Below are positions 4,879-58,452 of a DNA stretch of 64,000 bases, piece after piece. The DNA comes from an uncultured Gemmatimonadota bacterium (GTDB taxonomy: Bacteria; JAAXHH01). The translations under genes were made by a program, and so were the position numbers. The notes below the pieces were generated by a model, which worked only from the letters and a program-made list of their open reading frames with translations, did not search any database and was not told where the DNA came from. The DNA is taken from the NCBI GenBank assembly GCA_951812955.1, contig OX638340.1, positions 3,424,001-3,488,000 of the forward strand, read 5' to 3'. Position 1 is the stretch's first letter, and each line of letters starts with the position of its first letter.

Positions 4879-5004
4879 TAAAGTCGCATTTAAGGCTGGA
4901 TCTTCGCGCGGCCGGGTCGCAACGTGCGGCCGGGTCGCAAACGGTGGCGCGAAAAAACCTTCCTGCAGTCCGACTCGGGACCACTACATGCTCGGGATCA
5001 CTTC

Positions 5005-10102: not shown

Positions 10103-10260
10103 CGGAACCGTCGCGGCCACTGACCACAGGACTCGATCACGGTTCCGTCGCGGCCACATGACTCGGTCACGGTTCCGTCGCGGCCACATGACTCGGGCAA
10201 GGTTTCGTCGCGGCCACAGGACTCGGGCAAGGTTCCATCGTGGCCACTCAACTCGGCCAA
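10103..10260. repeat. 30-bp tandem repeat (~5 copies) immediately 3' of sufE
   Basis: Unit ggttccgtcgcggccacatgactcggtcac repeated with minor variants. In frame it reads MTRSRFRRGHMTRARFRRGH..., but there is no supported CDS. Confidence 0.75.
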
Positions 10261-10299
10261 TTTACAGTATTATCCACTCGACCCTGTCACGGTGCAGTC

Positions 10300-11250
10300 C
10301 TATCCACCCAATTCGGACACGAGCCCATCGAGTTGCGTTCGATGTTCGTCGGACAGTTCCCAACCCACTGAGTCGACGTTCTGCTCGACCTGGGCCGGTC
10401 GCGTTGCACCGCACAGGACCGACGTGATGCCGGGCTGCCGGGACGTCCAGTGGATGACGAGCTGGGCGAGGGATTTGCCATATTCATCCGCGATAGACTT
10501 CATTCGGCCGAGCATGTCGAGGGTTCGGGCCAGTTCCTCCCCCTGGAACCTGGGATCGTCGTTGCGTGAGTCGCCTTCCGGAAACCGGTGGCCCCTTCCG
10601 TATTTGCCTGTCAGCAGGCCCTTGTACAGCGGCCAGTAGGAGATCACCCCGATGTTGTTATCGCGGCAGTGGGGGAGAATCTGAGCCTCGATGTCGCGGA
10701 TGAGCATGTTGTAGGGCGGCTGATCCGAGTGCAGCGGCGCATGGCGTGCGAAGTCCTCCATTTGCGCCACGTCGTAATTGCTTACGCCAATCGCCCGGAT
10801 CTTGCCCTGTTCTTTCAGTTCGGCCAGGGTGACTGCCGTTTCCTCAAAGGGTGTGTTCTCGTCCGGCGCGTGCACCTGGTACAGGTCGATGTAGTCCGTA
10901 TTCAGACGTCGCAGACTCTCCTCGACCTGCTCCAGGACGCGTTTCCTGGAGCTGTCGCGCAGCAGCGTGGTGCCGTCCCAGTACAGTCCGCATTTCGTCG
11001 CAAGGACGATCTCGTCCCGTCGGCCTGAGATAGCCCGGCCTACCAGTCGTTCCGATTCGCCGCTGCGCCCGTACATGTAGGCGGTGTCGATGAGGGTTAT
11101 CCCGCCGTCCATGGCGCTTTCCAGCGCAGCCAGGGACGCGTTGTCGTCGATTCCGGTCCATCCGACGCCGGCCATAGGCCAGCAGCCCATGCCGATGACC
11201 GATACCGACAATCCCGATTCACCGAGCGCTCTGTATTCCATATTCGCCAT
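10300..11250 (-). CDS. aldo/keto reductase family oxidoreductase
   Basis: Start trimmed to MANMEYRALGESGLSVSVIGMGCW (ATG at 11250). The track ORF extends 107 codons further upstream, with no homology. Typical AKR motifs. Confidence 0.8.
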   Translation of the reverse strand: MANMEYRALGESGLSVSVIGMGCWPMAGVGWTGIDDNASLAALESAMDGGITLIDTAYMYGRSGESERLVGRAISGRRDEIVLATKCGLYWDGTTLLRDSSRKRVLEQVEESLRRLNTDYIDLYQVHAPDENTPFEETAVTLAELKEQGKIRAIGVSNYDVAQMEDFARHAPLHSDQPPYNMLIRDIEAQILPHCRDNNIGVISYWPLYKGLLTGKYGRGHRFPEGDSRNDDPRFQGEELARTLDMLGRMKSIADEYGKSLAQLVIHWTSRQPGITSVLCGATRPAQVEQNVDSVGWELSDEHRTQLDGLVSELGG

Positions 11251-11586: not shown

Positions 11587-12234
11587 ATGTTGAAAACCGG
11601 TTTAACCCTGATGGTCGCGATGGTTCTTGCGGCGTCTCCGGCAATGGCGGGTTCTCCGACGGTTACCGGCGATTACGTGGAAGTGCGCTCCAACCACATC
11701 CTGGGCGGCGGCTGCACCTATTCGGCGGAAGCCGGCGGCGATGCCAACCAGGCCGTCGTGGCGTGGCGCGTCCGTGACGGAGCGCTGGCCGATCTGTCCG
11801 TCGTTGCCGTCATTCTCGGGAAAGGCAACCTGCAACTCGGTCACCATGCACGCGAAACCGTGCTGCTGATCGACAGCCGGGCCACGCCGACCCAGCGCCA
11901 GGTCTTGAAGAGCACCTTCACGGCACGCTACGGCGAACTTTTCGGTACGGTGAAGACGGTGAAACCCACCGACATTTCCTTCCGCCACGACGGCGGGGAC
12001 ACCTACGCGGTTTCGGTGGACGGCCAGGTTCGCGTTTCTACCCGGACCATGGTTGCGACCGACCATGAGCCCAACTGCGACCGCATGGTTTGGTACGATC
12101 CCTTCACGAAGGACGCGTCGGCTTCGCTGGTCCAGACCGCGGCCCACGCATACAGCGGATCTGACCTGATCGCCACGTGGAGCATCCCGAACAAGCGCAG
12201 CGCTTACGTGGGAACCTTCTCCTTCACGCCGTAA
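11587..12234 (+). CDS. secreted hypothetical protein (possibly DUF1326-like)
   Basis: GGGAGG RBS. Signal peptide MLKTGLTLMVAMVLAASPAMA. 215 aa. Weak resemblance to DUF1326 C-terminal segments. Confidence 0.4.
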   Translation: MLKTGLTLMVAMVLAASPAMAGSPTVTGDYVEVRSNHILGGGCTYSAEAGGDANQAVVAWRVRDGALADLSVVAVILGKGNLQLGHHARETVLLIDSRATPTQRQVLKSTFTARYGELFGTVKTVKPTDISFRHDGGDTYAVSVDGQVRVSTRTMVATDHEPNCDRMVWYDPFTKDASASLVQTAAHAYSGSDLIATWSIPNKRSAYVGTFSFTP

Positions 12235-12377: not shown

Positions 12378-13214
12378 TTGCTGATCACCGCGACCGTCGT
12401 TACGTCGTGCTTCGGCCTGATTCTAAAATCCGCCCACCACAACGGACGAAATGCACTGGCGGTGGGCAGCCTGAATTACGGCGCGGGCGCCGTAATCTCC
12501 GGCCTGCTAATGCTCTTTGACACGGGCTGGGTCTGGCACGGGACCACCATACTGATCGGTGCGGCCAGCGGATTCTTCTATTTCGTAGCCTTCCGATTTC
12601 TGATCCAGGCGCTTCTGCAGGGCGGCGTCGCCGTTACCCTGGCGATCGTTCGCCTGTCCGTCCTGATCCCCATCCTCTGTTCCATCGTAATCTGGTATGA
12701 AGTCCCCAATCTGCCGCAGATTGCGGGAATCATCACGGTTTGCCTCGCACTGCCGCTCCTGACACTCGGCGTGGGCAGGCAGTCCGATCTGTCGCTGCGC
12801 GGCGTCGCCTGGCTGGTCGGAGCCCTCTTCATCACCACGGGATTCTGTCACCTGTCACCGAAGGTATTCAGCGAACTCGCGCCGCAGAGCCAGATGTCGC
12901 TCTACCTATTCTCACTCTTTGCCGTATCCGGATTCATGGGGCTGTGCTACATCTGGTACAAACCGATCCGGGTGCGACTGCCAGAAGTGTGGTGGAGCGG
13001 CATACTGGGCGCGTGCAACGTCGCGGGGACCTGGCTCCTCGTTCTCACGCTCAAGTTCCTCCCCGGTACCGTCGTCTTTCCTTTCGTCAGCGCGGTCGGC
13101 CTTGTCATCACCACGCTCGTGGCTATATTGTACTGGAAAGAACAGGTTCGCAGACTCGCCTACGTCGGCATCGGCCTGACCCTGTTAGCGGTCGTCCTTG
13201 TGAACAGCGGCTGA
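12378..13214 (+). CDS. multi-pass membrane protein (DMT/EamA-like transporter candidate)
   Basis: About 9 hydrophobic helices. No in-frame ATG near the 5' end, so a TTG start at 12378 is assumed. Confidence 0.45.
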   Translation: MLITATVVTSCFGLILKSAHHNGRNALAVGSLNYGAGAVISGLLMLFDTGWVWHGTTILIGAASGFFYFVAFRFLIQALLQGGVAVTLAIVRLSVLIPILCSIVIWYEVPNLPQIAGIITVCLALPLLTLGVGRQSDLSLRGVAWLVGALFITTGFCHLSPKVFSELAPQSQMSLYLFSLFAVSGFMGLCYIWYKPIRVRLPEVWWSGILGACNVAGTWLLVLTLKFLPGTVVFPFVSAVGLVITTLVAILYWKEQVRRLAYVGIGLTLLAVVLVNSG

Positions 13215-13531: not shown

Positions 13532-15271
13532 GTGATCCTGGACATTGACCGCACAGGCAGGATAGTGGGCATCGGCAGCAACGTCATGGACGTGATCTAT
13601 CGGGTAAACCGAATCGCGGGACCGGAGGAAAAAACCTATATCCTGCCGAATGAACATGGCGCGGTCGTGACCGAGGTAACAGGCGGCGTGACGCTGAACC
13701 ATCTGGCGTGGACGGCCCAGATGGGCGTCCCCGCCGGTCTTTTTGGATTTCAAGGGGACGACCGGTTCGGCGCTATGATCCGGGACGAAATGGACCGCCA
13801 CGGTATCGATCGGTCGGCCGTTCGGGTCCTCGAGGGCCGCGCATCCGGTTTTTCGGTGGTGAACGTGGCCGACGACGCGGACCGGGCAATTTACATGGCC
13901 CGCGCTCTGACGGCGGAGACCTCGGCTGCGGACGTAGAGACGTATTTTGCCGGGTACATTTGTTCCGCCGCGATGGTGACGACGGAAATATCCCAACTCC
14001 CGCTGGACGCCGTTATCGCGGTCCTGCGCATAGCCCGCGAGGCTGGCGTGCCGACCGTGCTGGACGTGGACGTCCCGCCGGAATTCGCCACCGAAGTGGC
14101 CGGACTCGGTTCCGCCGAAGATTTCGAAGAGGCCCTGCGTCTCGCCGACGTCGTGAAACCCGCCAAGGCCGCCGCATCGCAGATAGCAGCAGCCGAGAGT
14201 TCAGAGGAACGGGCCGAGCGTATTTTCAACCGGTACGGCGCCCGGCTGGTGGCCATCACCGAAGGGGCGCAAGGTTCGGTCGTCACCGACGGGAAGCAGA
14301 CGATCCGCACGCCTGCGAAACCCGTGGAAGCCCGGGACACCACCGGCGCGGGAGATGCCTTTCTGGGCGGCCTGATTGCGGGTATATACCACGGATTTGC
14401 GTTACAGGACATCGCATCGCTCGCCAATGCCTGCGGCGCTGTATGTTGCCGCATCCCGGGGGCCTTCCCGCAACTGGGTTCGAGCCGGGACGACGTTATC
14501 AGCCTGTACGAAGGCACTCCGATTCCTGCCGGGACCGCATCGGAATCGGTTGCAGGTCCGGAACCTGGGATCATCCCGGAGTCGGGGATCGTCCCGCAGT
14601 CGGAGATCGTCCCGCAGTCGGGGGTTGTGACCGAAAGCCTTGACGATTCCGGTTCAGCGACCGCGGGTGCAGCCGGCCTGAATGCCGTGCGGCGGACCGC
14701 TGCCGCCCTTTCCGGACTGTATGACGGCATGTCTGACACCTACTTTGACGAAGCCGTCGCGATTATCCGGAAGGCAGAAGCGGCCGGCGGGCGCGTACAC
14801 GTCACCGGTGTGGGGAAGTCCCGGCACATCGGCCACAAGCTGGCGGCCACGCTGCAGAGCACGGGAACGAAGGCGTATTTCCTCGATCCAGTCGACTGCA
14901 ACCACGGAGACAGTGGACAGGTAGCGGAAGGGGACGTGGTCGTCGCCCTGTCTCACAGCGGGGAGACGGAGGAACTGATGGCAGCCGTTGAAACCCTCGC
15001 CGCGATCGGTGCGATACTCATCGCAATCACCGGGCACGCCGCATCCAGTCTGGCCCGTTCGAGTGCGGCGACCCTGCACGTTCCCGTTGACCGCGAAGGC
15101 GGTCCCCTGGGACTCGCGCCGACCGTGAGCACGTCCTGCCAACTCGCCGTGGCCGACGGACTCGCCATGGCCCTGAAGGCCTGCCGTGGGTTTACCCGGG
15201 AAGACTTCGCCCGGTACCATCCCGGCGGGCGTATTGGAAGGCAACTGCGGGACAGTGAAGCCGAAAACTGA
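13532..15271 (+). CDS. fusion protein: PfkB-family sugar kinase (N-terminus) + KpsF/GutQ-like SIS sugar-phosphate isomerase domain (C-terminus)
   Basis: GTG start with AGAGGTGA RBS. PfkB motifs GIGSNVMDV... and DTTGAGDAFLGGLIAG. Linker with in-frame repeats (PESGIVPQSEIVPQSGVV). C-terminal VHVTGVGKSRHIGHKLAATLQSTGTKAYFLDPVDCNHGDSGQV matches SIS domains of arabinose-5-phosphate isomerases. Confidence 0.75.
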   Translation: MILDIDRTGRIVGIGSNVMDVIYRVNRIAGPEEKTYILPNEHGAVVTEVTGGVTLNHLAWTAQMGVPAGLFGFQGDDRFGAMIRDEMDRHGIDRSAVRVLEGRASGFSVVNVADDADRAIYMARALTAETSAADVETYFAGYICSAAMVTTEISQLPLDAVIAVLRIAREAGVPTVLDVDVPPEFATEVAGLGSAEDFEEALRLADVVKPAKAAASQIAAAESSEERAERIFNRYGARLVAITEGAQGSVVTDGKQTIRTPAKPVEARDTTGAGDAFLGGLIAGIYHGFALQDIASLANACGAVCCRIPGAFPQLGSSRDDVISLYEGTPIPAGTASESVAGPEPGIIPESGIVPQSEIVPQSGVVTESLDDSGSATAGAAGLNAVRRTAAALSGLYDGMSDTYFDEAVAIIRKAEAAGGRVHVTGVGKSRHIGHKLAATLQSTGTKAYFLDPVDCNHGDSGQVAEGDVVVALSHSGETEELMAAVETLAAIGAILIAITGHAASSLARSSAATLHVPVDREGGPLGLAPTVSTSCQLAVADGLAMALKACRGFTREDFARYHPGGRIGRQLRDSEAEN

Positions 15272-25098: not shown

Positions 25099-25965
25099 AT
25101 GAGTTTCGGTAACGGGGCCTACAGGTACGAGGTGCAGGAAAACTGGTGGAAGCTTCCTGAAGGGTGGTCCTTCGGATGGATAACCGGAGTCGCCTGCGAT
25201 TCAAAGGACCAGGTGTACGTCTATTCCCGAAGCGAGCATCCCCTGGTGGTCTTCGACCGCGACGGAACGTTTGTCAAGACCATCGGCGACGGCATACTGA
25301 AGGACGCTCATGGTATATACATCGACGGAGAGGACAACATCTTCCTGGTCGACTGGCTGGACCACTGCGTCCGCAAGTTCGACGCGGACGGGAACCAGGT
25401 CCTGGTGATTGGCACGCCCGGTGTTCCGAGCGACAACGACGGTGATCCTTTCCGCAAGCCGACGGAAGCGGTCGTCGCGCCGAACGGAGATATCTACGTG
25501 TCCGACGGGTACGACAACGCCCGGGTACACCGGTACGACGCCGAAGGGAACCACATCCACTCCTGGGGCAGCTGGGGTGACGGCCCCTCCCAGTTCGCGC
25601 TGAGCCACTGCGTCCGCATTGACCGGCATGACCGGCTGTGGGTGTGTGATCGTGAAAACCAGCGCATCCAGCTATTCGACCTGGAAGGCAAGTTTATCGA
25701 GGAGCGACACGTTCCTGGCAAACCCGACACCGTCTACTTTGATCCGGTAGAAGATATAGCGTACGTGGCCGAGCTGGAACAACAGGTGGGTATCTACACC
25801 CTGGACGGCGACCTGGTCAGCAGCTGGGGCGGCGGTAAGCGGAGCGATCGGCCGGGCGAATTCGCCGGCTGTCCCCACGGCATCTGGATGGACTCCCACG
25901 GCGACCTCTATGTCGGCGAAGTTCAGGCCGACGCCAGGCTGCAGAAGTTCGTGAGATCGAGGTAA
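25099..25965 (+). CDS. NHL-repeat beta-propeller protein
   Basis: 288 aa. Repeated ...VYVSDGYDNARVHRYD..., ...LWVCDRENQRIQLFD..., ...DLYVGEV... blades typical of NHL repeats. Confidence 0.7.
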   Translation: MSFGNGAYRYEVQENWWKLPEGWSFGWITGVACDSKDQVYVYSRSEHPLVVFDRDGTFVKTIGDGILKDAHGIYIDGEDNIFLVDWLDHCVRKFDADGNQVLVIGTPGVPSDNDGDPFRKPTEAVVAPNGDIYVSDGYDNARVHRYDAEGNHIHSWGSWGDGPSQFALSHCVRIDRHDRLWVCDRENQRIQLFDLEGKFIEERHVPGKPDTVYFDPVEDIAYVAELEQQVGIYTLDGDLVSSWGGGKRSDRPGEFAGCPHGIWMDSHGDLYVGEVQADARLQKFVRSR

Positions 25966-26070
25966 TTAGGCAATCGAGGACACTCGGCGACCGAGGTAAT
26001 CCGGCAATCGAGGACACTCGGCGATCGAGGTAATTCGGCAATCGAGGACACTCGGCGACCGAAGTAATAC
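25958..26070. repeat. 36-bp tandem repeat x3 anchored on the NHL gene's stop codon
   Basis: Copy 1 includes the last codons and the TAA of the NHL gene. Unit cgaggtaatccggcaatcgaggacactcggcgac. Confidence 0.8.
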
Positions 26071-26210
26071 GTGCGATCGGGGGAATACGCAGTACGGTTC
26101 CGGTCGACGAGTCCTCAGGTCCTACAGATTCCCTTCTGGCCCTGCAATTCCACGTAGCAGATCCCTTCTAGGTTTAGACCAGGATTCACCAAAACCTCCG
26201 GCTGCTGGAA

Positions 26211-28613
26211 ATGACCGATACTGACGAACGACATCGTGATACCCGCACGGACCGAGACCGGCTCGTGAGGCTGAGCCAGGCCAGTCTGCGCATAAGCGAA
26301 AGCCTGGATGTCGATACCGTGCTGCACGAGGTCGTGGAGAGCGCGTGCGAATTAACGGGTGCCGCAGCCGGGGGGATCGTCGCGGTGGATCACACAGGAA
26401 GTGTAAAGGATTTCGTTACGTATGGGGTGCGTCCCGAGGAGTACCAGAAGTGTCTTGACCTGCCGATCGGACCGAGATTGTGGGAAACCCTTCGCCGGTT
26501 GACGCAACCGCTAAGAATCAACGACCTTTCGTCCCATCTCGTATCGCAGGGTTTTCCTGACGATCCATGGCTGGCCCGGAGCTTTCTGGGTGTGCCTGTT
26601 CGGCATCAGGGCGATTTCATCGGATTCTTCTGTCTTACCGACAAGAGAGCTGGTGAGACCTTCACTGACGAAGACGAGGGGATCCTGGTCCTGTTCGCTT
26701 CTCAGGCCGCCGCCGCGATTGTCAATGCCCGCAGGCATGGCGAAATGCAGCGGGCAAGGGCCGACCTCGAAGTTTTGATCGACACCTCTCCCGTGGGTGT
26801 AGTGGTATTCGATGCCAGAACCGGAAAAATAACATCGTATAACCGGGAGACGCAACGCATTGTGGAGGAGCTCCTGGATCCTGGCCAGCCGACCGAAGAA
26901 CTAATGGACATACTCAGTGTGCAGCGCGCCGATGGACGTGAGATCGTGCTGGAGGACTCCGATCCGGCCGAGGTGTTCATGGACGCCACGGCGATCCGGG
27001 CCGAGGAGATTGTCCTCGTCGTTCCGGACGGACGAAAAATATCCACGCTGGTCAACGCCACCCCGATCTGCACCGAAAAGGGCGAGGTGGAGACGGTGGT
27101 CGTCACCTTGCAGGACATGACGTCCCGGGAGGACCTCGAGCGCATGCGTACCCAGTTCCTGGGCATGGTGAGTCACGAACTGAGAGCGCCGCTTACGTCG
27201 ATCAAGGGTTGCGCGGCTACTGCGTTGGGGACCCCGTCGATACTGGATCCGGCCGAGGTCCGGCAGTTTTTCCGCATCATCGATGAACAGGCGGATAACA
27301 TGCGTGAACTGATCGGCGACCTGCTGGATGCGGTCCACATCGATACAGGCACACTGTCTGTAACCCCGGAACCTGTGGAACTGGCTATCATGCTGGACCA
27401 GGCCCGTAACATGTACTTGAGCAGCGGAAGGAGAAGTCCGGTCAGTGTTGATCTGCCGGCTGATCTGCCGAAGGTGAAGGCGGACCGGCAGCGCGTCATA
27501 CAGGTGCTGGTGAATCTCCTATCCAATGCCTCCCGGCACGCGCCCGAGTCGTCTACGATACGGGTACAGGTGGTGCAGGAAGACTACCATGTAGCAATTT
27601 CAGTAATCGACGAGGGCCGGGGGATACCAGAGGATCGCCTGCCCCACCTGTTCCAGAAATTCGTTCAAAGTGGCCGGGAGGACCGCGGCCGCGGCGTAGG
27701 GGAGGGCCTCGGGCTGGCGATATGCAAGGGTCTGGTAGAAGCGCATGGTGGCCGAATCTGGGCTGAAAGCGAAGCCGACGGACTCGGCACGCGATTCACG
27801 TTTACTTTACCCGTGGTTGAAGTGGCCAAAGCAGAATTCGAAGTGACTTCAACAGGGCCCGAAGTGACTTCAACAGGGTCCGAAGTGACTTCAGCACGGG
27901 AGAAAGAGGGCAAGGATCGGAGAGTCCGGCATACGCCTTGCATACTCGCGGTGGATGACGATCCGATGGCTCTGGGACAGATCCGGGAGATCCTCAAGGG
28001 CGCGGGATTCACGCCACTTATCACGGGAGATCCCAAAGAGGTGCCGGACCTGATAGAAACCCGTCAGCCCGACCTGGTACTGCTGGATCTGCTGCTGCCG
28101 AAGAGCGATGGGATCGAACTGATGCAAAGCGAGCCTGCCTTGGCTGATCAGCCGGTCATCTTCCTGTCGGCGTACGGCCGGGACGAGACCATAGTCAAGG
28201 CCCTGGAAGTGGGTGCGGTCGACTACATAGTCAAGCCGTTCTCACCGTCGGAACTCGTGGCCAGGATACAGTCGGCACTTCGTAAGCATGACAGCGCGCC
28301 AGAGCCATTTCAGTCCGGCAGTCTCTATATCAACTATGAAGAACGGAATGCCGTTCTGGATGGCCGGCCACTGAAGCTGACCGCCACCGAGTACGGTCTG
28401 CTCAGGTTGCTTTCAGTCAACGCGGGTCGGGTGGTCACCCATGACAAGCTGCTACGTAGTGTGTGGCGGTCGAGTAAACCTGGTGACGCCCGGGTGGTGC
28501 ACGCGTTCGTGAAGAAACTCCGCCAGAAGCTGGGCGATGAAAGCAGCAATCCTACCTACATTTTCACCGAACACCGGGTTGGCTACCGAATGGCACGACC
28601 GGATGATGCATAA
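26211..28613 (+). CDS. all-in-one two-component regulator: GAF-PAS sensor / histidine kinase / receiver / OmpR-type winged-helix DNA-binding domain
   Basis: 800 aa. GAF (LRISESLDVDTVLHEVVESACELTGAAAGGIVAVD...). PAS. HisKA H-box MVSHELRAPLTSIKG. HATPase_c (VIDEGRGIP...GLGLAICKGLVEAHGG). Linker with 21-bp repeats (EVTSTGPEVTSTGSEVTS). REC (ILAVDDDPMALGQIREIL...VLLDLLLP). C-terminal trans_reg_C (LTATEYGLLRLL...VKKLRQKL...YIFTEHRVGYRM). Confidence 0.85.
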   Translation: MTDTDERHRDTRTDRDRLVRLSQASLRISESLDVDTVLHEVVESACELTGAAAGGIVAVDHTGSVKDFVTYGVRPEEYQKCLDLPIGPRLWETLRRLTQPLRINDLSSHLVSQGFPDDPWLARSFLGVPVRHQGDFIGFFCLTDKRAGETFTDEDEGILVLFASQAAAAIVNARRHGEMQRARADLEVLIDTSPVGVVVFDARTGKITSYNRETQRIVEELLDPGQPTEELMDILSVQRADGREIVLEDSDPAEVFMDATAIRAEEIVLVVPDGRKISTLVNATPICTEKGEVETVVVTLQDMTSREDLERMRTQFLGMVSHELRAPLTSIKGCAATALGTPSILDPAEVRQFFRIIDEQADNMRELIGDLLDAVHIDTGTLSVTPEPVELAIMLDQARNMYLSSGRRSPVSVDLPADLPKVKADRQRVIQVLVNLLSNASRHAPESSTIRVQVVQEDYHVAISVIDEGRGIPEDRLPHLFQKFVQSGREDRGRGVGEGLGLAICKGLVEAHGGRIWAESEADGLGTRFTFTLPVVEVAKAEFEVTSTGPEVTSTGSEVTSAREKEGKDRRVRHTPCILAVDDDPMALGQIREILKGAGFTPLITGDPKEVPDLIETRQPDLVLLDLLLPKSDGIELMQSEPALADQPVIFLSAYGRDETIVKALEVGAVDYIVKPFSPSELVARIQSALRKHDSAPEPFQSGSLYINYEERNAVLDGRPLKLTATEYGLLRLLSVNAGRVVTHDKLLRSVWRSSKPGDARVVHAFVKKLRQKLGDESSNPTYIFTEHRVGYRMARPDDA

Positions 28614-29723: not shown

Positions 29724-30013
29724 AGTGATCAATCGGCCAGGGGCACGATTCCAGGGCACGCTGCCGGGCCGCATGCGGAATGGTCACCGCGTGAACCTTG
29801 ATTATATTAGTCGGAAGAGTCATGGCAGTTCTCGAATAAAAAACTTAAAACCGCAGAAACTGCGGCATTTTCGGTATCCGCAGCAACTTTAGCATCTGGA
29901 GTACCAGTAGCATCCGCGTGAACCGCGTGAACCGCGTCAACTGCGGCACCTGTAGCAACCACGGCATCGATAGCATATGATGAACGCACGATATCACGCT
30001 CAAAGGAGTACCC

Positions 30014-31756: not shown

Positions 31757-31984
31757 TCATCCAACGTTCGACACCGAACTCAGGCCTCTCAAGAACCAAC
31801 CTGCCAGAACACCGACGATAGCAATGATGATCTTAAGTACATGATCCACTGTTCTCTCTCGACGACGTACACCTTCTTCCAATCGTCCAATTGATCGACC
31901 TATTTCCAGGATGCCCGTATCAAAAGAAGAGCTATGTGACCGTTGTGCTAATTGTTCAAGTATTCCTCTGATATCCTGACTCAC
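31757..31984 (-). CDS. hypothetical small protein with C-terminal transmembrane helix (second gene of the cassette)
   Basis: 75 aa. GTG start overlapping the upstream stop. C-terminal LKIIIAIVGVLAGWFL helix. Confidence 0.35.
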   Translation of the reverse strand: MSQDIRGILEQLAQRSHSSSFDTGILEIGRSIGRLEEGVRRRERTVDHVLKIIIAIVGVLAGWFLRGLSSVSNVG

Positions 31985-32250
31985 CCTACAGCTCCTGGAG
32001 AACGAATATAGGCTTGTTCACAAATCTGTTCGGGAGAGTCCAGAACGATGAAGTAGACCTGTTCGTGTAGCCCTTTTCCTGTCGTTTTCCTGACCTGTTG
32101 CTCAGCTTCTTGGAATATACGTTTGACATCAATTTGTATCGGCTCCAAGTTGGGCAAATACACGACAATAGCCGGATACTCATTTCCATCTCGGAATAAG
32201 GTCTTGACCTTGTACTCATATCCTTGTGAGGTCTCTGTTAGTTGTGTCAT
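31981..32250 (-). CDS. hypothetical protein (first gene of a low-GC two-gene cassette)
   Basis: 89 aa, no recognisable domain. Lies in a conspicuously AT-rich island (31690-32440). Its stop overlaps the start of the next ORF (GTGA). Confidence 0.4.
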   Translation of the reverse strand: MTQLTETSQGYEYKVKTLFRDGNEYPAIVVYLPNLEPIQIDVKRIFQEAEQQVRKTTGKGLHEQVYFIVLDSPEQICEQAYIRSPGAVG

Positions 32251-32446
32251 ATCAACCTCTCACCGATCTTCGATACGTGTTTTAAAACTTCCCGGTCGCG
32301 TTCCCAAATAGTCGAGATAAACCGGAAAATCTCGGACTGTTTTTATAGATGAAAGACATTATGAATTACAAGACAAATGAAATCGTTTGCAAAAGGATGC
32401 CAATTTAGTAACAAAATCACTCCCACCTGACAAGGAGATTCGTTAA

Positions 32447-35867: not shown

Positions 35868-35952
35868 GCTCTGCGAGTCAGTTTTAAAACGCTCACTCCC
35901 GTCCTTGCGTCAACGGCTTGACTGCCCCCTCCACGCGTCCGAGCCTTATTCT
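35868..35952. repeat. ~85-bp copy of the 3' end of the small coiled-coil gene family, fused to a ctcgaacttttt promoter-element core
   Basis: gctctgcgagtcag...gctcactcccgtccttgcgtcaacggcttgactgccccctccacgcgtccgagcc aligns nearly base-for-base with 37833-37917 (the 3' coding end of the 37850..38227 minus gene) and partly with 49185-49230. It is followed by ttattctcgaacttttt. Confidence 0.7.
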
Positions 35953-36167
35953 CGAACTTTTTACGAAAACACGAAAAACACCCTTTGACATATACCTTTA
36001 TTTATCAGATATTTCACAATACCTCATGACGGAGTAATCATATCTCCGGAAGTATCCTTCGGTAAAGTAGGTAACACTCTTCCAGCCAACGGCTTTCCCA
36101 TCCTTACTAAAATCGTCAAATGGGCGTGTAGGTATAATCCCACATTGTCCCCTCCGAAAGGATTGTC

Positions 36168-37343: not shown

Positions 37344-37544
37344 CGGCACCTTACATTGTGGTCTGAGCTGGTTTTCCGAGTGAATTGAAGCGGGATACAC
37401 CGCGCACAAGCCGTTATTCATAGCGTACATCCTAGTAGTTACGGCAGTGAAAAGAACACAGACGGCGGCAAGCGCCTGGATGAATACGATCTGTTTCCGA
37501 ACACTCGAACTTCTCGCGACAATTAGATCTGCTCTTGCCCGTTG

Positions 37545-37790
37545 TTACTGCGTGTGCTCTCCGTGAACGCCGGCCGGGTGTTGACCTTTGACGTCCTGAT
37601 CTCCCAGGGTCTGGGGAGAATATGGCTACGCCAACCACAAACTGGTGCGCAGCCTGATTAAATCGCTCCGCCGCAAGATCGGTGACGACGCGCGCACTCC
37701 GGACTACATCCTCAACGTGCGCGGGGTCGGGTACCGAATGGCCCGGTCCGTGGAACTCAATGTGGAAACTCTAGCGCGGGATATCCCTGC
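37545..37790 (+). pseudogene. remnant of the C-terminal (OmpR-type wHTH) end of a paralogous all-in-one histidine-kinase regulator
   Basis: DNA aligns with 48556-48790 of the intact paralog (LRVLSVNAGRV..., ...LRRKIGDDARTPDYILNVRGVGYRMARSVELNVE) but carries a 2-nt deletion/frameshift and lacks everything upstream. Preceded at ~37440-37500 by a minus-strand fragment of the coiled-coil gene N-terminus. Confidence 0.6.
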
Positions 37791-37849
37791 GGTTTAATGC
37801 ACCTGGTGCGGATGACCTCGCTCCGCTCTGCAGATCAGGTCCATAAGGC

Positions 37850-38227
37850 TCACTCCCGGCCTTCCGTCAACGCCCTGACCTCCCCCTCCACGCGTCCAAG
37901 CCGCTTGTTCATTGCATGTATTTCCACCTGGATGGCTGCATGCTCTTCGCGCATCTCTTCTCTGATGGCGGCGTGCTCTTCGCGCATCTCTTCACGCATT
38001 GAGGTGTGCTCTTCGCGCATCTCTTCTCTGATGGCGGCGTGCTCTTCACGCATCGCATTTCTGAACGATAGGAATTGCTCCTGCATTTCCGTCCGAAACG
38101 ACCGGAATTCCTCTCGCATTTCGATGCGCAGTTCGCTGGTGGGTTGCCTGGTCCAGGTGATTACAGCAAAAACGAGGATGCCGACGGCCGCCAGCGCCTG
38201 GATGAATACGATCAGTTTCTGATACAT
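37850..38227 (-). CDS. small membrane-anchored coiled-coil protein with 33-bp in-frame repeats (EEMREEHAAIR x4), DUF1640-like
   Basis: 125 aa. N-terminal TM (LIVFIQALAAVGILVFAVI). Tandem heptad repeats. C-terminal HAMNKRLGRVEGEV resembles the FTRMDKRFDTLEKKV of the 48848 ORF. Confidence 0.5.
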   Translation of the reverse strand: MYQKLIVFIQALAAVGILVFAVITWTRQPTSELRIEMREEFRSFRTEMQEQFLSFRNAMREEHAAIREEMREEHTSMREEMREEHAAIREEMREEHAAIQVEIHAMNKRLGRVEGEVRALTEGRE

Positions 38228-38400
38228 TCCGTTCCTCTCTACCGTTCCTCTTTATCGTACCTCTCTACCGTTCCTCTTTATCGTTCCTCGTCCACAGTTC
38301 AGTACGATTGAAGAAACCGGATCACACCCCGTACGCCGCATCCGATACACCGCATCTCATACGCCGTATTCCGTACACCGCAACCCCTACCGCCTCCCAT

Positions 38401-38735
38401 GCGACGTGTCTGTTATAAGTAACAGTCGGAGTCTAATTGGAATTCTCGAACTTTTTCTTATGATAAATCGATTTTCAAACACCAATTCTTCACTTACGAC
38501 ATGTCTGCTAATAGCAATAGTCAGCTTCCAATCAGGAACATCAAAATTTCCTGACATATTTCGATTGTCACTTATTCTTCACCTACGACGTGTCTGTTAT
38601 TAGTAACAGTCGGGGATCATTCATATATCTAGAACTATGTTTATTGTAATACGACTTTTACATGATTACATTGCCAATGACGTGTATGTTATTTATACGG
38701 AGTCCAATCGGAAATCTCGAGTTTTTCTGCAATAA
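38401..38735. repeat. cluster of 4 copies (2 well conserved, 2 degenerate) of a dispersed ~55-100-bp AT-rich element (consensus acgacgtgtCTGTtattagtaACAGtcggagtccaatcggaatctcgaactttttt)
   Basis: Copies start at about 38401, 38487 (degenerate), 38583 and 38676. The copies at 38410-38425 and 38595-38610 contain perfect CTGT-N8-ACAG palindromes. The cluster lies in the divergent region between the coiled-coil gene and LRR paralog 2. Confidence 0.7.
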
Positions 38736-38923
38736 TAATAAGAAGTACTTTTGTCTCATTCCTTCATCCATTGAACAATGCGCAAAACACCTTGTTAGTA
38801 CAAACACAACCATCGAAACAACTTAAATAAATCAGGTATCACCCTCCTGGCCTTCAGTTTACCCGTTTTTACTTAAAATCAAAGAGTGGGTAATTGTCTT
38901 TTTCCCCTTCCCGAAGGATTGTC

Positions 38924-49093: not shown

Positions 49094-49246
49094 TTCAATT
49101 CCCCTTTCTAACCAATGTATTTAAACAGGCATATATCGACACCATATCGGTATATGACATGTATATGCTACATAAGGAAATCAACTCTCCACGCGTTCGA
49201 GCCTTCTGTTCATTGCGTTGAATGATCAATATTCAACCCAGTTCGA

Positions 49247-49385
49247 CACACCTGTTATTGGTTATAGTCGGAATCCAATCCGGAATCTCGAACGTTTTTT
49301 AAAAATAATGTTAAAAAGTTCCGTTACCTCGTTCCTTCGTCCAAAGAACATCGGGCGAACATCCCGAATGAAGAATCAAGGCGCC
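49247..49385. repeat. copy G of the dispersed element (orphan LRR-gene leader) upstream of the thiolase gene, preceded at 49185-49230 by a coiled-coil-gene 3' fragment
   Basis: cctgttattggttatagtcggaatccaatccggaatctcgaacgttttttaaaaataatgttaaaaagttccgttacctcgttccttcgtccaaagaacatcgggcgaacatcc. Confidence 0.65.
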
Positions 49386-49536
49386 CCTTGATTCGTCCTC
49401 GTATATAGGATATTAATACCATAATATAGAGCACGCTCATCACAGTTGATCTCGCTCTGGCTAGCACGCTCATCACAGTTGAACTCGCACTGGCTATGTA
49501 CTCGAGATTCTGATCCGAGATAGAAAGGCACCCGAA

Positions 49537-50658
49537 ATGAACAACAAGCGCGTCGCCATCGTCGCGGGCGGCCGGACGCCCTTCATAAAGTCGGGCAAGG
49601 CCTTCGCCGAAATCGATTCCCTGGCCATGGCCGTCCACGCCACACGGGGCATGCTGGACCGGAGCGGGATCGACCTGGAGCTGATCGAATCGGTCGTTTT
49701 CGGCACGATGACGCCCGATCCCTTGAAGCCCAACCTGGCCCGGGAGCTCGTCTTCGAGGCGGGGCTGCCGATCCGCGCCGAGGCCCATACCGTGGCTTCC
49801 TACTGCATCACTGGCCTGCGGGCGGTCACGGTCGTCGCCGACGCCATCGCCGGCGGCCGCATCGACGTGGGCCTGGCAGGCGGGGTCGATTCGCTGACGC
49901 GCGCCTCCATGGACCTCTTCCGCGAGCCGTCCACCGGCCTGAACATGGGCCAGCACATGGAGTTGACGTGCAAGGAGTGGGATATTCCGCGCGAAAGGCA
50001 GGACGAGGTGGCCCTGGCCAGCCACCGCAACGCCGTGGCCGCGCGCGAGAAGCTGGCCGGGGAAATCCACCCGCTGGCGGGTGAGGAAGCCGATTCGGGA
50101 CCGAGGGCGGACACCTCGCTCGAGGCCCTGGCCGCGCTGAAGCCCGTATTCGACCCGGAAAACGGCACGCTCACGGCGGGGAATTCGTCGCCTGTGACCG
50201 ACGGCGCCGCGGCGGTGCTGCTGATGAGCGAGGAGAAAGCCGCTCAATGCGGCCTGGAACCGCTGGCGTACATCGGGGGCATGGCCTACGCCGCCCATGA
50301 CCCTGCCGAGGGCCTGCTCATGGCGCCGGCCATCGCCGTGCCCCGGCTCCTGGAAAGCCGGAACCTGGCCATGGCCGACATGGACCTGGTGGAGATCCAC
50401 GAAGCCTTCGCGGCCCAGGCGTTGGCCAGCGCGGCGGCGTGGGAAAGGGGCTGGAAGGGTGCGCCGACGGGCCCGGTCGACTGGACCCGCGTGAACGTCA
50501 ACGGCAGTTCAATCGCCGTGGGCCATCCGTGGGCGGCCACCGGTACACGCATCCTGACGACCCTGGCCAACGAGATGGCCAGGCGCGACGCCCGCTACGG
50601 CCTGGTCAGCATCTGCGCCGCTGGAGCCATGGCGGGCGCGTTCCTGCTGGAGCGGTAG
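49537..50658 (+). CDS. thiolase (acetyl-CoA C-acyltransferase) family
   Basis: 373 aa. N-terminal VAIVAGGRTPF. Active-site regions NSSPVTDGAAAVLLMSEE and C-terminal NVNGSSIAVGHPWAATGTRIL...ICAAGAMAGAFLLE. Confidence 0.8.
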   Translation: MNNKRVAIVAGGRTPFIKSGKAFAEIDSLAMAVHATRGMLDRSGIDLELIESVVFGTMTPDPLKPNLARELVFEAGLPIRAEAHTVASYCITGLRAVTVVADAIAGGRIDVGLAGGVDSLTRASMDLFREPSTGLNMGQHMELTCKEWDIPRERQDEVALASHRNAVAAREKLAGEIHPLAGEEADSGPRADTSLEALAALKPVFDPENGTLTAGNSSPVTDGAAAVLLMSEEKAAQCGLEPLAYIGGMAYAAHDPAEGLLMAPAIAVPRLLESRNLAMADMDLVEIHEAFAAQALASAAAWERGWKGAPTGPVDWTRVNVNGSSIAVGHPWAATGTRILTTLANEMARRDARYGLVSICAAGAMAGAFLLER

Positions 50659-50783
50659 GCGGCATGGCTAGTAGGTTGGTGTTGTTTCTCTGAAGAAGAT
50701 TCCTGTCGGATCGCTGATGAATGGTTCTTCCTTCTCCAGATATTCTGAACTTTGTCAATCAGGAGTCGATTACCCGTTGTAGT

Positions 50784-50987
50784 CTACTCTAGCAACGACT
50801 TGATCAGCGGAACGACGACGCACGCCAGCACGACGCCAAGTGTCCATTTAATCAGTTTTATATCGCTCTGCATGGATGATAGTTTCCGCTCAAAGTCCGC
50901 TATTTCTTCGGCGGCTTCGCTGGCGGCTGCTTCCGGAGCGCCCGCGGCTACGAGTGCGGCATAGGTCTTGGAAAGCATGATGGGCAT
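50784..50987 (-). CDS. small C-terminally membrane-anchored protein, DUF1640-like (C-terminal half)
   Basis: 67 aa. ...KLSSMQSDIKLIKWTLGVVLACVVVPLI resembles the C-terminal coiled coil plus TM of DUF1640/XhlA-like proteins. Same strand as lptD and immediately downstream of it. Confidence 0.45.
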   Translation of the reverse strand: MPIMLSKTYAALVAAGAPEAAASEAAEEIADFERKLSSMQSDIKLIKWTLGVVLACVVVPLIKSLLE

Positions 50988-51236
50988 GATATGATCTATT
51001 GATCGAGCGTTCTTACCATCTGTAAACGAAATCTACGGCACGCGTATGATATTCGTTGCTTCTAATTTAAGTCCCTAATAAATCCTACACGAATTAATTA
51101 CCTAACAGCGCGATGATGCTCCAAACTGGTCCTGCCCTGCCGAGACCTGCCCTTCACTTATGCTAGTCGGAAACCAGGTAACTTTTCTCGATTTTTATTT
51201 TCAAGGATGGTATTGGGCGATGAGATCATCCTCACC

Positions 51237-55126: not shown

Positions 55127-56599
55127 ATGCATTATTTCATAGTAGTACTGATTGCGTTCGCTCTCAGTATGTATGGATGCGAAGGTAAGACAGGTCCGGC
55201 GGGTCCTAGCGGCTCGGCGGGTACCGCGGGTCCGGCAGGTCCGGCGGGCCCGCAGGGCTCGACTGGTCCGGCAGGCCCGGCAGGTGCTGACGGCGCTGAT
55301 GGCGCGACTGGTCCGGCAGGTGCTGACGGCGCTGATGGCGCGACTGGTCCGGCAGGTCCGGCAGGCGCTGATGGCGCTGACGGTGCTGATGGCGCGACTG
55401 GTCCGGCAGGCCCGGCAGGTGCTGACGGTGCTGATGGTGCTGATGGCGCTGACGGTGCTGACGGTGCTGATGGCGCGACTGGTCCGGCAGGTCCGGCAGG
55501 TCCTCAAGGCCCGGCTGGTATCCCGGACACGGGTGGTATTGATCCCATCGAACTGGCTCAGGCGCACCACATCGCCTTCGTGATAGGTGATGCGGATGCT
55601 GACATGGCTCCCTCTTCAGTCATTTTGAGGGTAGGCGAAGAAACTATGGTCATCGCGGCTGCCGGTGCGCAGAGCGGCAGGAAGCTTCCAAGCGTTTCAG
55701 CTACTGTTACTATGGCGATCACCGATGACGATGACGAAGCCATCACGCTGGAAGATGGCGTGCTCACCGCCGTAGGGGCTGGAACAGCCGAGATCACGGC
55801 TGAGTCGGCAATCGCCGGTATCGCCGGTAAGCTCACCGTCACGGTTACCAAGCCCATCGATGAGATCGTTTTCGATGCGTCCAGTGATCTTAACTTGGCC
55901 GCAGGCGAGTCGACTGGTGAAATAACTGCCACGGCCCATGATGAAGATGGCGAAGTAATTATGCCGCGTTCTGACTGGTCCTGGGCGAGTTCCGACGGGT
56001 CCGTTGCCTCTGTCGCGCAAAAGAAGGATGCCGACAATAAGTTGGTGGATGGCGGCAGAATCGCCACGATAACCGGCAAGGGTTCTGGTGACGCCGATAT
56101 TACGGCGACGGTCGAAGGCGTAAGTGGCAGTATCGCCGTGAACGTCACAGGCCAGAGCGTCACGAGAGTTATCGATCCCAGTTCCTCAAGCGAAGGCAAC
56201 GTATTTGTATGGGATATAGGGTTGGAAACGCCGGGATGGACAGATGCTGGCGCACCGGAAGATGGCACCGAATTTACCGTCAATCTACGTGACAGAGTTT
56301 CCAACAGCCTGATCGATAATTGGACATTGTCGGTTACGCCGACAAGTGCGGCTGCAGGAACTGCCGCCACTGAAGAAGATGCTCAAGTTGATCCAGTACT
56401 CGGCGCGGTAATGGATCCCGCCGATGGAGCAGCAACCACTGGTGCCATTGAGGTGACGATTGCGCCTCATACTGATGGTGTTACCGATGGGATTACTGTT
56501 GGCACGTATCATACTTTTGTTTCCCTGACGTCTACGGGAGCGAGAGAGGCGCGTCTACAGTTTACCATCAGTGTCATAGACTCGACGCCAGACGAATAG
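55127..56599 (+). CDS. collagen-like triple-helix repeat lipoprotein with C-terminal Big_2-like domains
   Basis: GGGAG RBS. Start [20 protein letters not shown]. About 115 residues of Gly-X-Y ([22 protein letters not shown]..., a long GADGADGAT run encoded by 36-bp DNA tandem repeats). Then Ig-like regions ([28 protein letters not shown]). Confidence 0.7.
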
Positions 56600-56826: not shown

Positions 56827-57248
56827 GTTCCTTTTTGCACATTGAGTTTATTGTGCGCTACAGGTCCAAAGGATATTTCGAATAAAAACGTCGTCTAGCC
56901 GATACGATTGACATGCTGCCTGTAAAATCCAATTTAAAACTAGTTTTCAGAAGCTAGACCAGCATCACCATGCCGACAGATAACTTGACGAATTGAGCGT
57001 TATACAAAAAAACATAGATTTTACTCGAGATAATCAACATGACTTCGACTAATAAATAAGAACATACTTCATGGCGTAGCAGAACTGTAAGAGAAGACGT
57101 TTGCTAGAATCCCGAAACCGTCGTGAATAGCGAGATCTAATTTACATCGCTGTATACGCTAAACGCTTCCGTAAACCTAAACCCAATATCGCTTCATGTC
57201 TTTATGAGCCACGCAACGGGAAATCGTTCCCGCTGCCTGCTTGACTAA

Positions 57249-57417: not shown

Positions 57418-58452
57418 GTGTTACGCCATGCTACCAGTCTGTTACTCTTTGTTGTAGTTCTTGCCTGCGAAGGTCCGGCGGGTCCGGCGGGTCCGGCGGG
57501 TCCGGCTGGTTCGGCGGGAGTGGCAGGCGCCGCGGGTCCCTCGGGAGTCCAGGGCCCGGCCGGGCCGCAGGGTGAATCAGGGGAAACGCTGGACTGGTCG
57601 GACGTCATTGCAGACCAGAATCTGGGTAACGCGGTCTATGCGATCGGCGTGCAGGTACAGGGGAAGAATTACATACTGGGGACGGGTTTCGTCGCGCACT
57701 TCTATAATGCGATCTGGACCAACGTGCACATCGTGCAGGCTGTGCTCATCACGACCCAGTTCATAGAGGATCTCAACCCCCGACCCTTTGCCGTCAAATC
57801 GGGCACCGAGGTCGGCGGCGCTGATACGTACTGGCTGAATACTTTCTGGGTTCATCCCGATTACGACGGTACGGCCGGATCCCCCGATGTAGCCCTGCTT
57901 TCCATAGACGCAAATATCACGAACCTTCCGTTCTTCCTGCCCAGGGACCAGGCCCAGGGACTGCAGGTGGGTCAGCCGATCGGCACGATTGGTTTTCTCG
58001 AAGAACTTTCGGGTGAGTCCGTCACAGTACCCATCGCCACGTTCAGAGACGGAACGATCAGCGCGCTGAGGCCCTTTGAAGACGAGATCCCGACGCCCGA
58101 GAACAGCCGGGTCATTCAGCATAATCTGGACGTGACCGGCCTTACGAGCGGCAGTCTCATTTTCGATCACCAGGGATATATCGTCGGCATGAACTTCGCC
58201 GGTTACTTTCGCGTCGCATATGACCAGCGTACCGGAGAACCCACGCGCATCCCTACGGAAAACCCCGGATACGGCATTCGCGTCGACGAACTGTGGCGTC
58301 TTTACGACGTGGCAAGAGGGCGCAGGGTCGTACCTGATGTGGCGGGGAGACGCACGGACGTTCCGATCGTAATGCAGCCCGAGCAGGACTATCCGAACGA
58401 ATCCTATATGCCCTTCCCCGACAACTGGAACGGGGAGACGAGTTTGCCGTAG
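57418..58452 (+). CDS. lipoprotein with short collagen-like segment + trypsin-like (S1/HtrA-like) serine peptidase domain
   Basis: Signal/lipobox [49 protein letters not shown]. Then GTGFVAHFYNAIWTNVHIV (His), DVALLSIDANI (Asp), GLTSGSLIFDHQGYIVGMNFAG (Ser region). Confidence 0.55.
   Translation: MLRHATSLLLFVVVLACEGPAGPAGPAGPAGSAGVAGAAGPSGVQGPAGPQGESGETLDWSDVIADQNLGNAVYAIGVQVQGKNYILGTGFVAHFYNAIWTNVHIVQAVLITTQFIEDLNPRPFAVKSGTEVGGADTYWLNTFWVHPDYDGTAGSPDVALLSIDANITNLPFFLPRDQAQGLQVGQPIGTIGFLEELSGESVTVPIATFRDGTISALRPFEDEIPTPENSRVIQHNLDVTGLTSGSLIFDHQGYIVGMNFAGYFRVAYDQRTGEPTRIPTENPGYGIRVDELWRLYDVARGRRVVPDVAGRRTDVPIVMQPEQDYPNESYMPFPDNWNGETSLP

Follow-up and report, generated by a model that had tools for sequence, protein, structure and literature searches.

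The repeated AT-rich element at this locus is best explained as a cis-regulatory DNA motif; the evidence speaks against a MITE, a structured RNA and an SOS box. Its conserved part was an asymmetric two-box DNA site of about 45 bp, the best reading of which is on the minus strand rather than on the strand that an earlier note on this DNA had used. On the minus strand the core comprised an A-tract, (T)TCGAGA, a spacer of 14-15 nt and (T/C)CGACTAAT, often followed about 6-10 nt later by ATAACAG; on the plus strand the same core read TTAGTCGGA, N13-14, (A/T)TCTCG(AAC) and a T-run. The site is predicted to be a promoter that drives small coiled-coil genes and is recognised by one of the alternative sigma factors of this lineage of Gemmatimonadota, a reading to which we assign a probability of roughly 0.45. 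The general idea of the earlier note, i.e., a cis-regulatory DNA site, fits the evidence, unlike its specific proposals of a LexA operator, a MITE and an RNA leader.

The two-box structure of the core was evident from a gapless alignment of 15 sites, in which the CGAGA and CGACTA boxes were conserved and the 14-15-nt spacer between them was not. All strong sites contained CGAGA, N14-15 and (T/C)CGACTA, i.e., two different boxes whose starts were separated by a fixed distance of approximately 21-22 bp. The boxes can also be seen as a weakly repeated unit (TYCGASWA) in direct orientation at a distance of two helical turns, an arrangement that would suit a transcription-factor site. In the window (i.e., the whole 64-kb stretch of DNA that was analysed), TAGTCGGA with no more than one mismatch, followed by N11-15 and TCTCG, occurred seven times as compared with 0.36 expected, and four of these seven sites were not used in defining the pattern. 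Other sub-patterns of the element were also far above chance in the window (4 observed versus 0.04 expected and 5 versus 0.21). Matches of a core HMM with E<0.02 in the window and related loci were all in intergenic DNA, and in the spacer between lptD and the adjoining small gene, which ranged from 114 to 336 nt in five genomes, the core was the sole invariant block besides the ribosome-binding site. The loci compared with the window (L019, L021, L022-L029 and L030-L039) were all from one lineage and most were syntenic with it, which means that the site classes are only partly independent of one another.

A search of the window with an nhmmer profile built from obvious copies identified seven copies and one fragment (H), all matched on the plus strand between 35.9 and 49.4 kb (Table 1). 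Four of these, in the region 38401-38735, were arranged head to tail as AT-rich units of about 90 nt, and copy A was the only member of this array that kept both boxes. The earlier count of seven or more copies in 11 kb was thus borne out, but the family was not confined to that interval, with further members at 29.8, 32.3, 51.2 and 57.0 kb. With a relaxed search, members beyond the cluster were located at 29808 and 51164 and, on the opposite strand, at 57026, together with a weaker one at 32308 and with members at 4869 and 21589 in L028. Members of the family were also present in at least eight related Gemmatimonadota assemblies. The earlier note had named confinement to this locus without conservation in relatives as grounds for giving up its idea; what was found instead were diverged members outside the cluster and copies in relatives. 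The repeat family is real and conserved within one lineage.

Table 1. Positions in the window of members of the element family and of associated features.
Feature	Position	Strand	Remarks
Copy A	38388-38494	+ (profile match)	first of tandem array A-D, ~90-nt period
Copy A core	38419-38458	-	both boxes intact, TTCGAGAA-N-CTCCGACTG; core HMM E=9.6e-8
Copies B, C and D	38482-38791	-	decaying tandem duplicates, ~90-nt period
Copy B	38482-38584	+ (profile match)	both boxes mutated
Copy C	38572-38680	+ (profile match)	box 2 mutated/degenerate (TCTAGAAC)
Copy D	38674-38791	+ (profile match)	5-nt deletion in box 1
Copy E	43812-43939 (core 43842-43883)	- reading, + profile match	orphan
Copy F	45702-45896 (profile match 45746-45879; core 45777-45816)	-	orphan
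Copy G	49187-49401 (profile match 49230-49364; core 49262-49301)	-	
Fragment H	35935-35978	-	box 2 and T-run only
Diverged member X3	51162-51198	-	between lptD stop and 67-aa gene 50784-50987
Diverged member X4	29804-29836	-	orphan, between two plus-strand genes
Diverged member X5	57023-57054	+	orientation opposite to other window members
Diverged member X6	32307-32345	-	58 nt upstream of small-gene pair 31981-32250 and 31757-31984
Gene cc1	37850-38227	-	125 aa; EMREEH repeats after an N-terminal membrane helix
Gene cc2	48848-49093	-	81 aa; convergent with hybrid kinase gene 46414-48807
CTGT-N8-ACAG, first	38410-38425		spans CTGTTAT block and CAG of variant CAGTCGGA box
CTGT-N8-ACAG, second	38594-38609		copy C, tandem duplicate of A
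Short tandem repeats (13/26-nt and 14-nt units)	38229-38382 (38229-38289, 38332-38382)		between coiled-coil gene start and copy A

A scan of 185,579 species genomes with a strict pattern gave one real match (L001 in OZ241920.1) and one chance match (L002). In JGI metagenomes the head pattern matched 16 loci (L003-L018), none of them more than an unrelated chance or coding match, and no matches were noted in the viral contigs scanned. Exact-protein look-ups of two window proteins likewise found nothing. For both the LRR lipoproteins and the hybrid kinase, the closest relatives were from Gemmatimonadetes/Gemmatimonadota MAGs, and the kinase encoded at 46414-48807 shared 100% identity with a protein of a 3.81-Mb contig. 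The lineage appears to be sponge-associated, as judged from dataset labels, locus tags and record names.

This distribution bears on the possibility that the element is a MITE-like or REP-like intergenic repeat that spreads alone, any regulatory effect being secondary. Like such repeats, it is short, AT-rich, multi-copy and intergenic; it occurs as several dispersed copies and one tandem array in AT-rich DNA, some copies are orphans without an obvious target gene, and four or five carry an internal hairpin (GAACTTTTTT/AAAAAAGTTC; found in E, F, G and L1 only, and partly in D). However, only internal hairpins and no terminal inverted repeats were present in E, F, G or the array, and no target-site duplications were noticed in an unsystematic look. 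Moreover, copies occupied orthologous positions in L021, L028, L031, L037 and L039, their orientation relative to neighbouring genes was constant, and the strict pattern gave a single real match among the species genomes and none in JGI metagenomes or viral contigs. A mobile sequence of this kind, as the earlier note had suggested, is very unlikely.

A structured RNA transcribed from either strand, whether as leader, small RNA or riboswitch-like element, is equally hard to credit. Copy E read on the plus strand folded better than shuffled sequences (z=-3.6) because of an A/U hairpin, and copies F and G shared one compensatory change in a downstream hairpin (CTGG/CCAG versus CGGG/CCCG). Fold z-scores for the other single sequences were between -0.2 and -1.8, however, and the internal GAACTTTTTT/AAAAAAGTTC hairpin was missing from most copies. 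Rfam 15 at gathering thresholds gave no matches in the window, and RNAalifold predicted no pairs from either 13 plus-strand sequences or 15 sequences of the opposite strand. Observed pair counts for the palindrome and hairpin were reached in 29 to 144 of 500 shuffles; taken together, the palindrome and the GAACTTTTTT/AAAAAAGTTC hairpin gave a covariation value of 0.126 as compared with 0.101 in shuffles, 29 of 500 of which reached the observed value. The fold and covariation analysis across copies proposed in the earlier note thus spoke against the RNA leader proposed there.

Several other explanations of the core were considered and rejected. Open reading frames over several copies shared a K-S-S-R-F/I-x-I-G-L-R-L peptide, but a coding function was rejected because of stops and frame-breaking spacers in other copies and, as judged by eye, no third-codon substitution bias. 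An integron attC site was rejected on the grounds that the GAAC...GTTC arms are unlike RYYYAAC/GTTRRRY cores, that the hairpin was mostly missing and that the genes form no cassette array. Intrinsic terminators were likewise rejected; only one weak hairpin was flagged on the minus strand at 49351-49367, and predicted terminators were not enriched.

The genomic context of the core suggested an association with a particular type of gene. Nearly every core HMM match pointed at a small gene (59-158 aa) for a coiled-coil or membrane protein. In the window the putative targets were cc1 (the presumed target of copies A-D, with the copy A core 196 nt upstream), cc2 (with the copy G core 172 nt upstream), the 67-aa gene and the XhlA-like pair. 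A 67-74-aa gene downstream of lptD was the putative target in the window, L028, L031, L037 and L039, the core of X3 being kept at the position between lptD and the small gene in five genomes, and a weakly XhlA-like gene pair was the putative target in the window and in L028, where the site orthologous to X6 lay upstream of such a gene. Putative targets in other loci were MYQKLI-type coiled-coil genes (two in L028, two in L037 and one in L039) and a coiled-coil gene of another sequence type in L021. In L030-L034 the core pointed at a 94-aa gene and at a gene for a membrane coiled-coil protein, and in L033 at a 78-aa gene as well. Pfam searches with the small proteins gave only sub-threshold generic coiled-coil matches (CCDC90-like, XhlA and DUF7310). 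The 67-aa coiled-coil/membrane protein is named 'integrase' in some NCBI records; as it lacks an integrase domain, the name looks like a mis-annotation.

The minus-strand reading of the core was favoured by sites with a single possible target. Thus, M1 and L1 in the alternative reading face convergent genes, and X1 and X3 in that reading would run antisense into lptD. Member X5, which points at a collagen-like lipoprotein gene starting at 57418, about 370 nt downstream, was the fourth single-target site to favour the proposed orientation.

The earlier note had assigned the element a different role, that of supplying the leader and start of the LRR lipoprotein genes. This assignment did not hold, as copy E ended at the ribosome-binding site before the ATG at 43943 and between the end of copy D and the ATG at 38924 there were about 100 nt; the element was absent from LRR genes of related genomes (L019, L022-L025 and the second LRR gene of L021). 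It is more likely that the genes served are the small coiled-coil genes on the opposite strand rather than the LRR genes. The 5' leaders of the LRR lipoprotein genes contained a conserved feature of their own, namely a hairpin (ACCC..TTTT / AAAG..GGGT) followed by a T-rich stretch before the ribosome-binding site (38855-38905 in the window; 4865-4905 and approximately 9930-9975 in L021), which could be an attenuator or a leader structure.

A promoter is the favoured reading because the two boxes are unlike and about 21-22 bp apart, an A-tract is present, orientation is constant and the distance from core to start codon is variable (approximately 37 to 200 nt). Promoters of the sigma-70 family have this geometry, i.e., two unlike boxes separated by about 21-22 bp start to start with an upstream A-tract. 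In the proposed arrangement, the A-tract would act as an UP-like element, TCGAGA as the -35 box, CGACTAAT as a long -10 box and ATAACAG as the start region, and the promoter would drive a set of genes for small (59-158 aa) coiled-coil, often single-pass membrane, proteins. We infer both the reader of the site, which would be a sigma factor as part of RNA polymerase and not a transcription factor, and the position of the transcription start. Most site classes were intergenic and oriented towards a gene, the exceptions being four orphan copies in the window and one locus where a box abuts the ATG.

A sigma-70 scan did not pick the core sites, and neither box fitted the housekeeping consensus. 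With promoters of alternative sigma factors of the same family (ECF and sigma-28/FliA) the core shared two asymmetric boxes, a fixed but non-conserved spacer, orientation to genes and an A-tract. The consensus for sigma-28 is TAAA-N15-GCCGATAA, some ECF factors recognise a CGAC/CGTC -10 motif, and ECF -35 boxes have an AAC motif. The (T/C)CGACTAA of the present site was partly similar to the -10 motifs of both types, and this likeness, with neither consensus met, may be taken as a lead only; TCGAGA on the minus strand fitted neither TAAA nor the AAC motif of ECF -35 boxes, and the downstream box had an extra C in comparison with GCCGATAA. A sigma-28 promoter as such was rejected in that the site, read as TCGA-N15-TCCGACTAA, matched the upstream box at two of four positions and had one extra base downstream (comparison by eye). 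Promoters of the sigma-54 type (TGGCAC-N5-TTGC) and of the Bacteroidetes type (TTTG / TAnnTTTG) were also without a match by eye. The site is best described as a new motif of an ordinary kind.

One class of sites did not conform to the promoter as modelled. In L001 and L030-L034 (at approximately 12350, and approximately 700 in L001), the start codon of the 94-aa coiled-coil gene abutted the second box (CGACTA-ATG), and an in-frame 3-nt indel between L030 and L031 suggested that this ATG is real. Since there is no room for a transcription start between box and ATG, the core cannot be the promoter of the 94-aa gene in the form proposed, which makes a transcription-factor operator a serious rival. 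The operator might be bound by, for example, the OmpR/PhoB-type wHTH of the GAF-PAS-kinase-receiver-wHTH hybrids and would control the coiled-coil and possibly the LRR genes. A box abutting an ATG is compatible with such a site, as is the variable distance to start codons. As in OmpR/PhoB operators, a TCGRA-like unit is weakly repeated in direct orientation (as TTCGAGAA and, at a distance of about 21 bp, as T(C)CGACTA); a third, TCGGA-like unit was present between the boxes in the main subfamily. Furthermore, wHTH hybrid kinase genes adjoined several copies, in that a hybrid kinase gene followed by a convergent coiled-coil gene with its site was noted twice in the window, in L028, in L037 and in L039, and in degenerate form in L027. 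On the other hand, half-sites of known OmpR-family operators are 10-11 bp apart as opposed to 21 bp here, the repeats were only loosely alike, and the middle unit was not conserved in diverged members. Many sites were without such a gene nearby, including the lptD spacer, 94-aa, 78-aa and XhlA-like classes, which had no kinase gene within the flanks examined; adjacency to a kinase gene was seen only in syntenic loci and for that reason provides little independent evidence. An operator is possible but doubtful.

Genes encoding hybrids with the GAF-PAS-HisKA-HATPase-receiver-wHTH architecture were present as three paralogues in the 64 kb (46414-48807, 26211-28613 and from approximately 62880 onward), and the family comprised 7937 proteins at E<=1e-100 among the candidates scored in public data. 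Upstream of the second of these genes was a 17/34-nt tandem repeat of about five copies (GATCGAGGTAATTAGGC / AATCGAGGACACTCGGC; 25955-26071).

A back-to-back divergent promoter, in which the near-palindromic box TTCTCGAA would serve as a -35 box on both strands and the plus side would drive the LRR lipoprotein and thiolase genes, is decidedly unlikely. Copies E, D, H and M2, for which a two-way promoter is conceivable, do lie upstream of LRR genes, copy E ending at the ribosome-binding site of the gene at 43943, and an AT-rich -10 box (TAAAAA) would be located 16-18 nt to the right of TTCTCGAA, with TCGAAC-N16-18-TAAAAA in E, F and G and TCGAGT-N16-TAAGAA in D. Retention of perfect boxes by the orphans E and F, which have no coiled-coil gene, would also be in keeping with activity on this side. 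In contrast, neither the right-hand -10-like sequence nor the GAAC of the -35 box was conserved in N1, N2, M1, A, L1 or X1-X6, the LRR genes of L019 and L022-L025 and the second LRR gene of L021 had no element, and the plus direction of M1, L1, X1 and X3 runs into convergent genes. As box 2 is nearly palindromic and located in divergent spacers, it is nevertheless conceivable that the site might be a two-way switch which couples or alternates expression of the coiled-coil and LRR surface proteins.

The orphan copies provided information on the history of the locus. Of the site classes found in the window, roughly one in three (E, F, H and X4) lacked a small gene downstream, although the boxes of E and F were still perfect; the site in these orphans could act on the plus side, on LRR genes or in both directions. 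For orphans E, M2 (in L021) and H, a coiled-coil gene and site were found at the corresponding position in other genomes. Thus, copy E adjoins the stop of a large LRR gene, and in L028 a coiled-coil gene with copy N2 follows that gene; a coiled-coil gene follows the kinase gene in the window and L028 at the position of M2; and a coiled-coil gene with full copy M1 follows the acetyl-CoA synthetase gene in L021 at the position of fragment H. Copy F had no minus-strand gene downstream, and the same copy (F2) was present in a variant contig (L026). In X4, box 2 was followed by an A-run and not by a T-run.

A decayed C-terminal (wHTH) remnant of a hybrid kinase gene was identified at 37432-37797, with 79% DNA identity to 48618-48806, which indicates that a unit of kinase gene, coiled-coil gene and element was duplicated and then partly lost, the locus being a product of segmental duplication and decay. 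The copies in the 11-kb cluster would thus have come from duplication of units comprising a coiled-coil gene plus its upstream region between LRR and kinase genes, with local tandem duplication giving rise to A-D and loss of the coiled-coil gene at some positions leaving the orphans E, F and H. The variant contig L026 (15.7 kb, from another assembly), when compared with the window at 45700-50700, contained an identical kinase gene and a different left flank, in which genes of 387 and 122 aa replaced the LRR genes; the different flank suggests strain-level rearrangement at the locus.

Short tandem repeats were a further feature of the spacer upstream of cc1, and arrays of units of about 14 nt were present at the equivalent place in L037 (approximately 12000-12050 and 14400-14460) and L039 (approximately 12810-12900). 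Such repeats (GGATGCGGCGAGCC-like units) were always located between the core and the start of MYQKLI-type genes and differed in copy number among genomes. Additional binding sites or a leader of variable length are possible roles for them. Other repeats in the window included a 30-nt tandem repeat at 10124-10333 (CCACAGGACTCGATCACGGTTCCGTCGCGG), with 5-7 copies that decayed toward one end, and coding repeats of the collagen-like Gly-X-Y type (GPAGP) within two genes for lipoprotein-like products (55170-55530 and 57457-57550), at the position of which related loci had collagen-plus-trypsin-like genes.

Comparison of the copies also accounted for the two perfect CTGT-N8-ACAG palindromes to which the earlier note drew attention as resembling the E. 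coli-type LexA SOS box. The first was exactly where the note had placed it, the second was at 38594-38609 rather than 38595-38610, and both (in copies A and C) matched the 16-bp consensus exactly. If LexA were to bind there, the flanking genes would be under DNA-damage control. Two matches, however, were not significant, the mean for shuffled sequences being 0.53 per window with two or more in 7 of 100 shuffles, and since A and C are neighbouring tandem copies with near-identical heads, the two palindromes are not independent and amount to one event. Among more than 25 family members the palindrome occurred in these two, and no further match was found in the 413 kb of the window and related loci. 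An alignment of 13 copies indicated that its left half, CTGTTAT, was a conserved block, whereas its right half formed the first part of another conserved element, box (T)TAGTCGGA. In most copies the sequence at this point was ...ATAG or ...TTAG, and other members had TTG or other bases instead of CAG; CAG occurred in A, C and M1 of L021, and ACAG in A and C only. Column pair 27-38 was G-T in seven copies and G-C in three, and pair 28-37 was broken in 9 of 13. The remaining copies were thus not the degenerate palindromes they had been taken for, as most carried CTGTTAT..(A/T)TAG, the right half of which was the start of box TAGTCGGA.

As judged from this alignment, the palindrome arises where the CTGTTAT block meets a T-to-C change in box TAGTCGGA, i.e., at the junction of two unrelated conserved blocks, in contrast with a true SOS box. 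The two palindromes are an accidental product of a single, recent duplication in tandem and would by themselves be without function. Boxes of the CTGT-N8-ACAG type are characteristic of Beta- and Gammaproteobacteria, other phyla using other motifs. Neither lexA nor recA was present in the window or related loci, the genes flanking the palindromes encode LRR lipoproteins and coiled-coil proteins and are not SOS genes, and a literature search for a Gemmatimonadota LexA motif gave nothing relevant. A LexA operator is therefore exceedingly improbable, the SOS reading being unsupported because the palindrome represents one duplicated event and is absent elsewhere in the 413 kb. Thus, a false lead has been removed, in that an SOS box at this locus is most improbable.

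The small coiled-coil genes are located among genes for LRR 'eukaryote-like' surface proteins, which are thought to be relevant to host interaction. That the family represents an undescribed regulon of an alternative sigma factor or dedicated regulator, in which genes for small coiled-coil membrane proteins are interleaved with eukaryote-like LRR lipoprotein genes, is unlikely on present evidence. If the promoter reading is true, the motif would mark a co-regulated set of small coiled-coil membrane proteins and would offer the first handle on gene regulation in this uncultured Gemmatimonadota lineage, and with its help the regulon could be delimited across the genome and the matching sigma factor or regulator sought.
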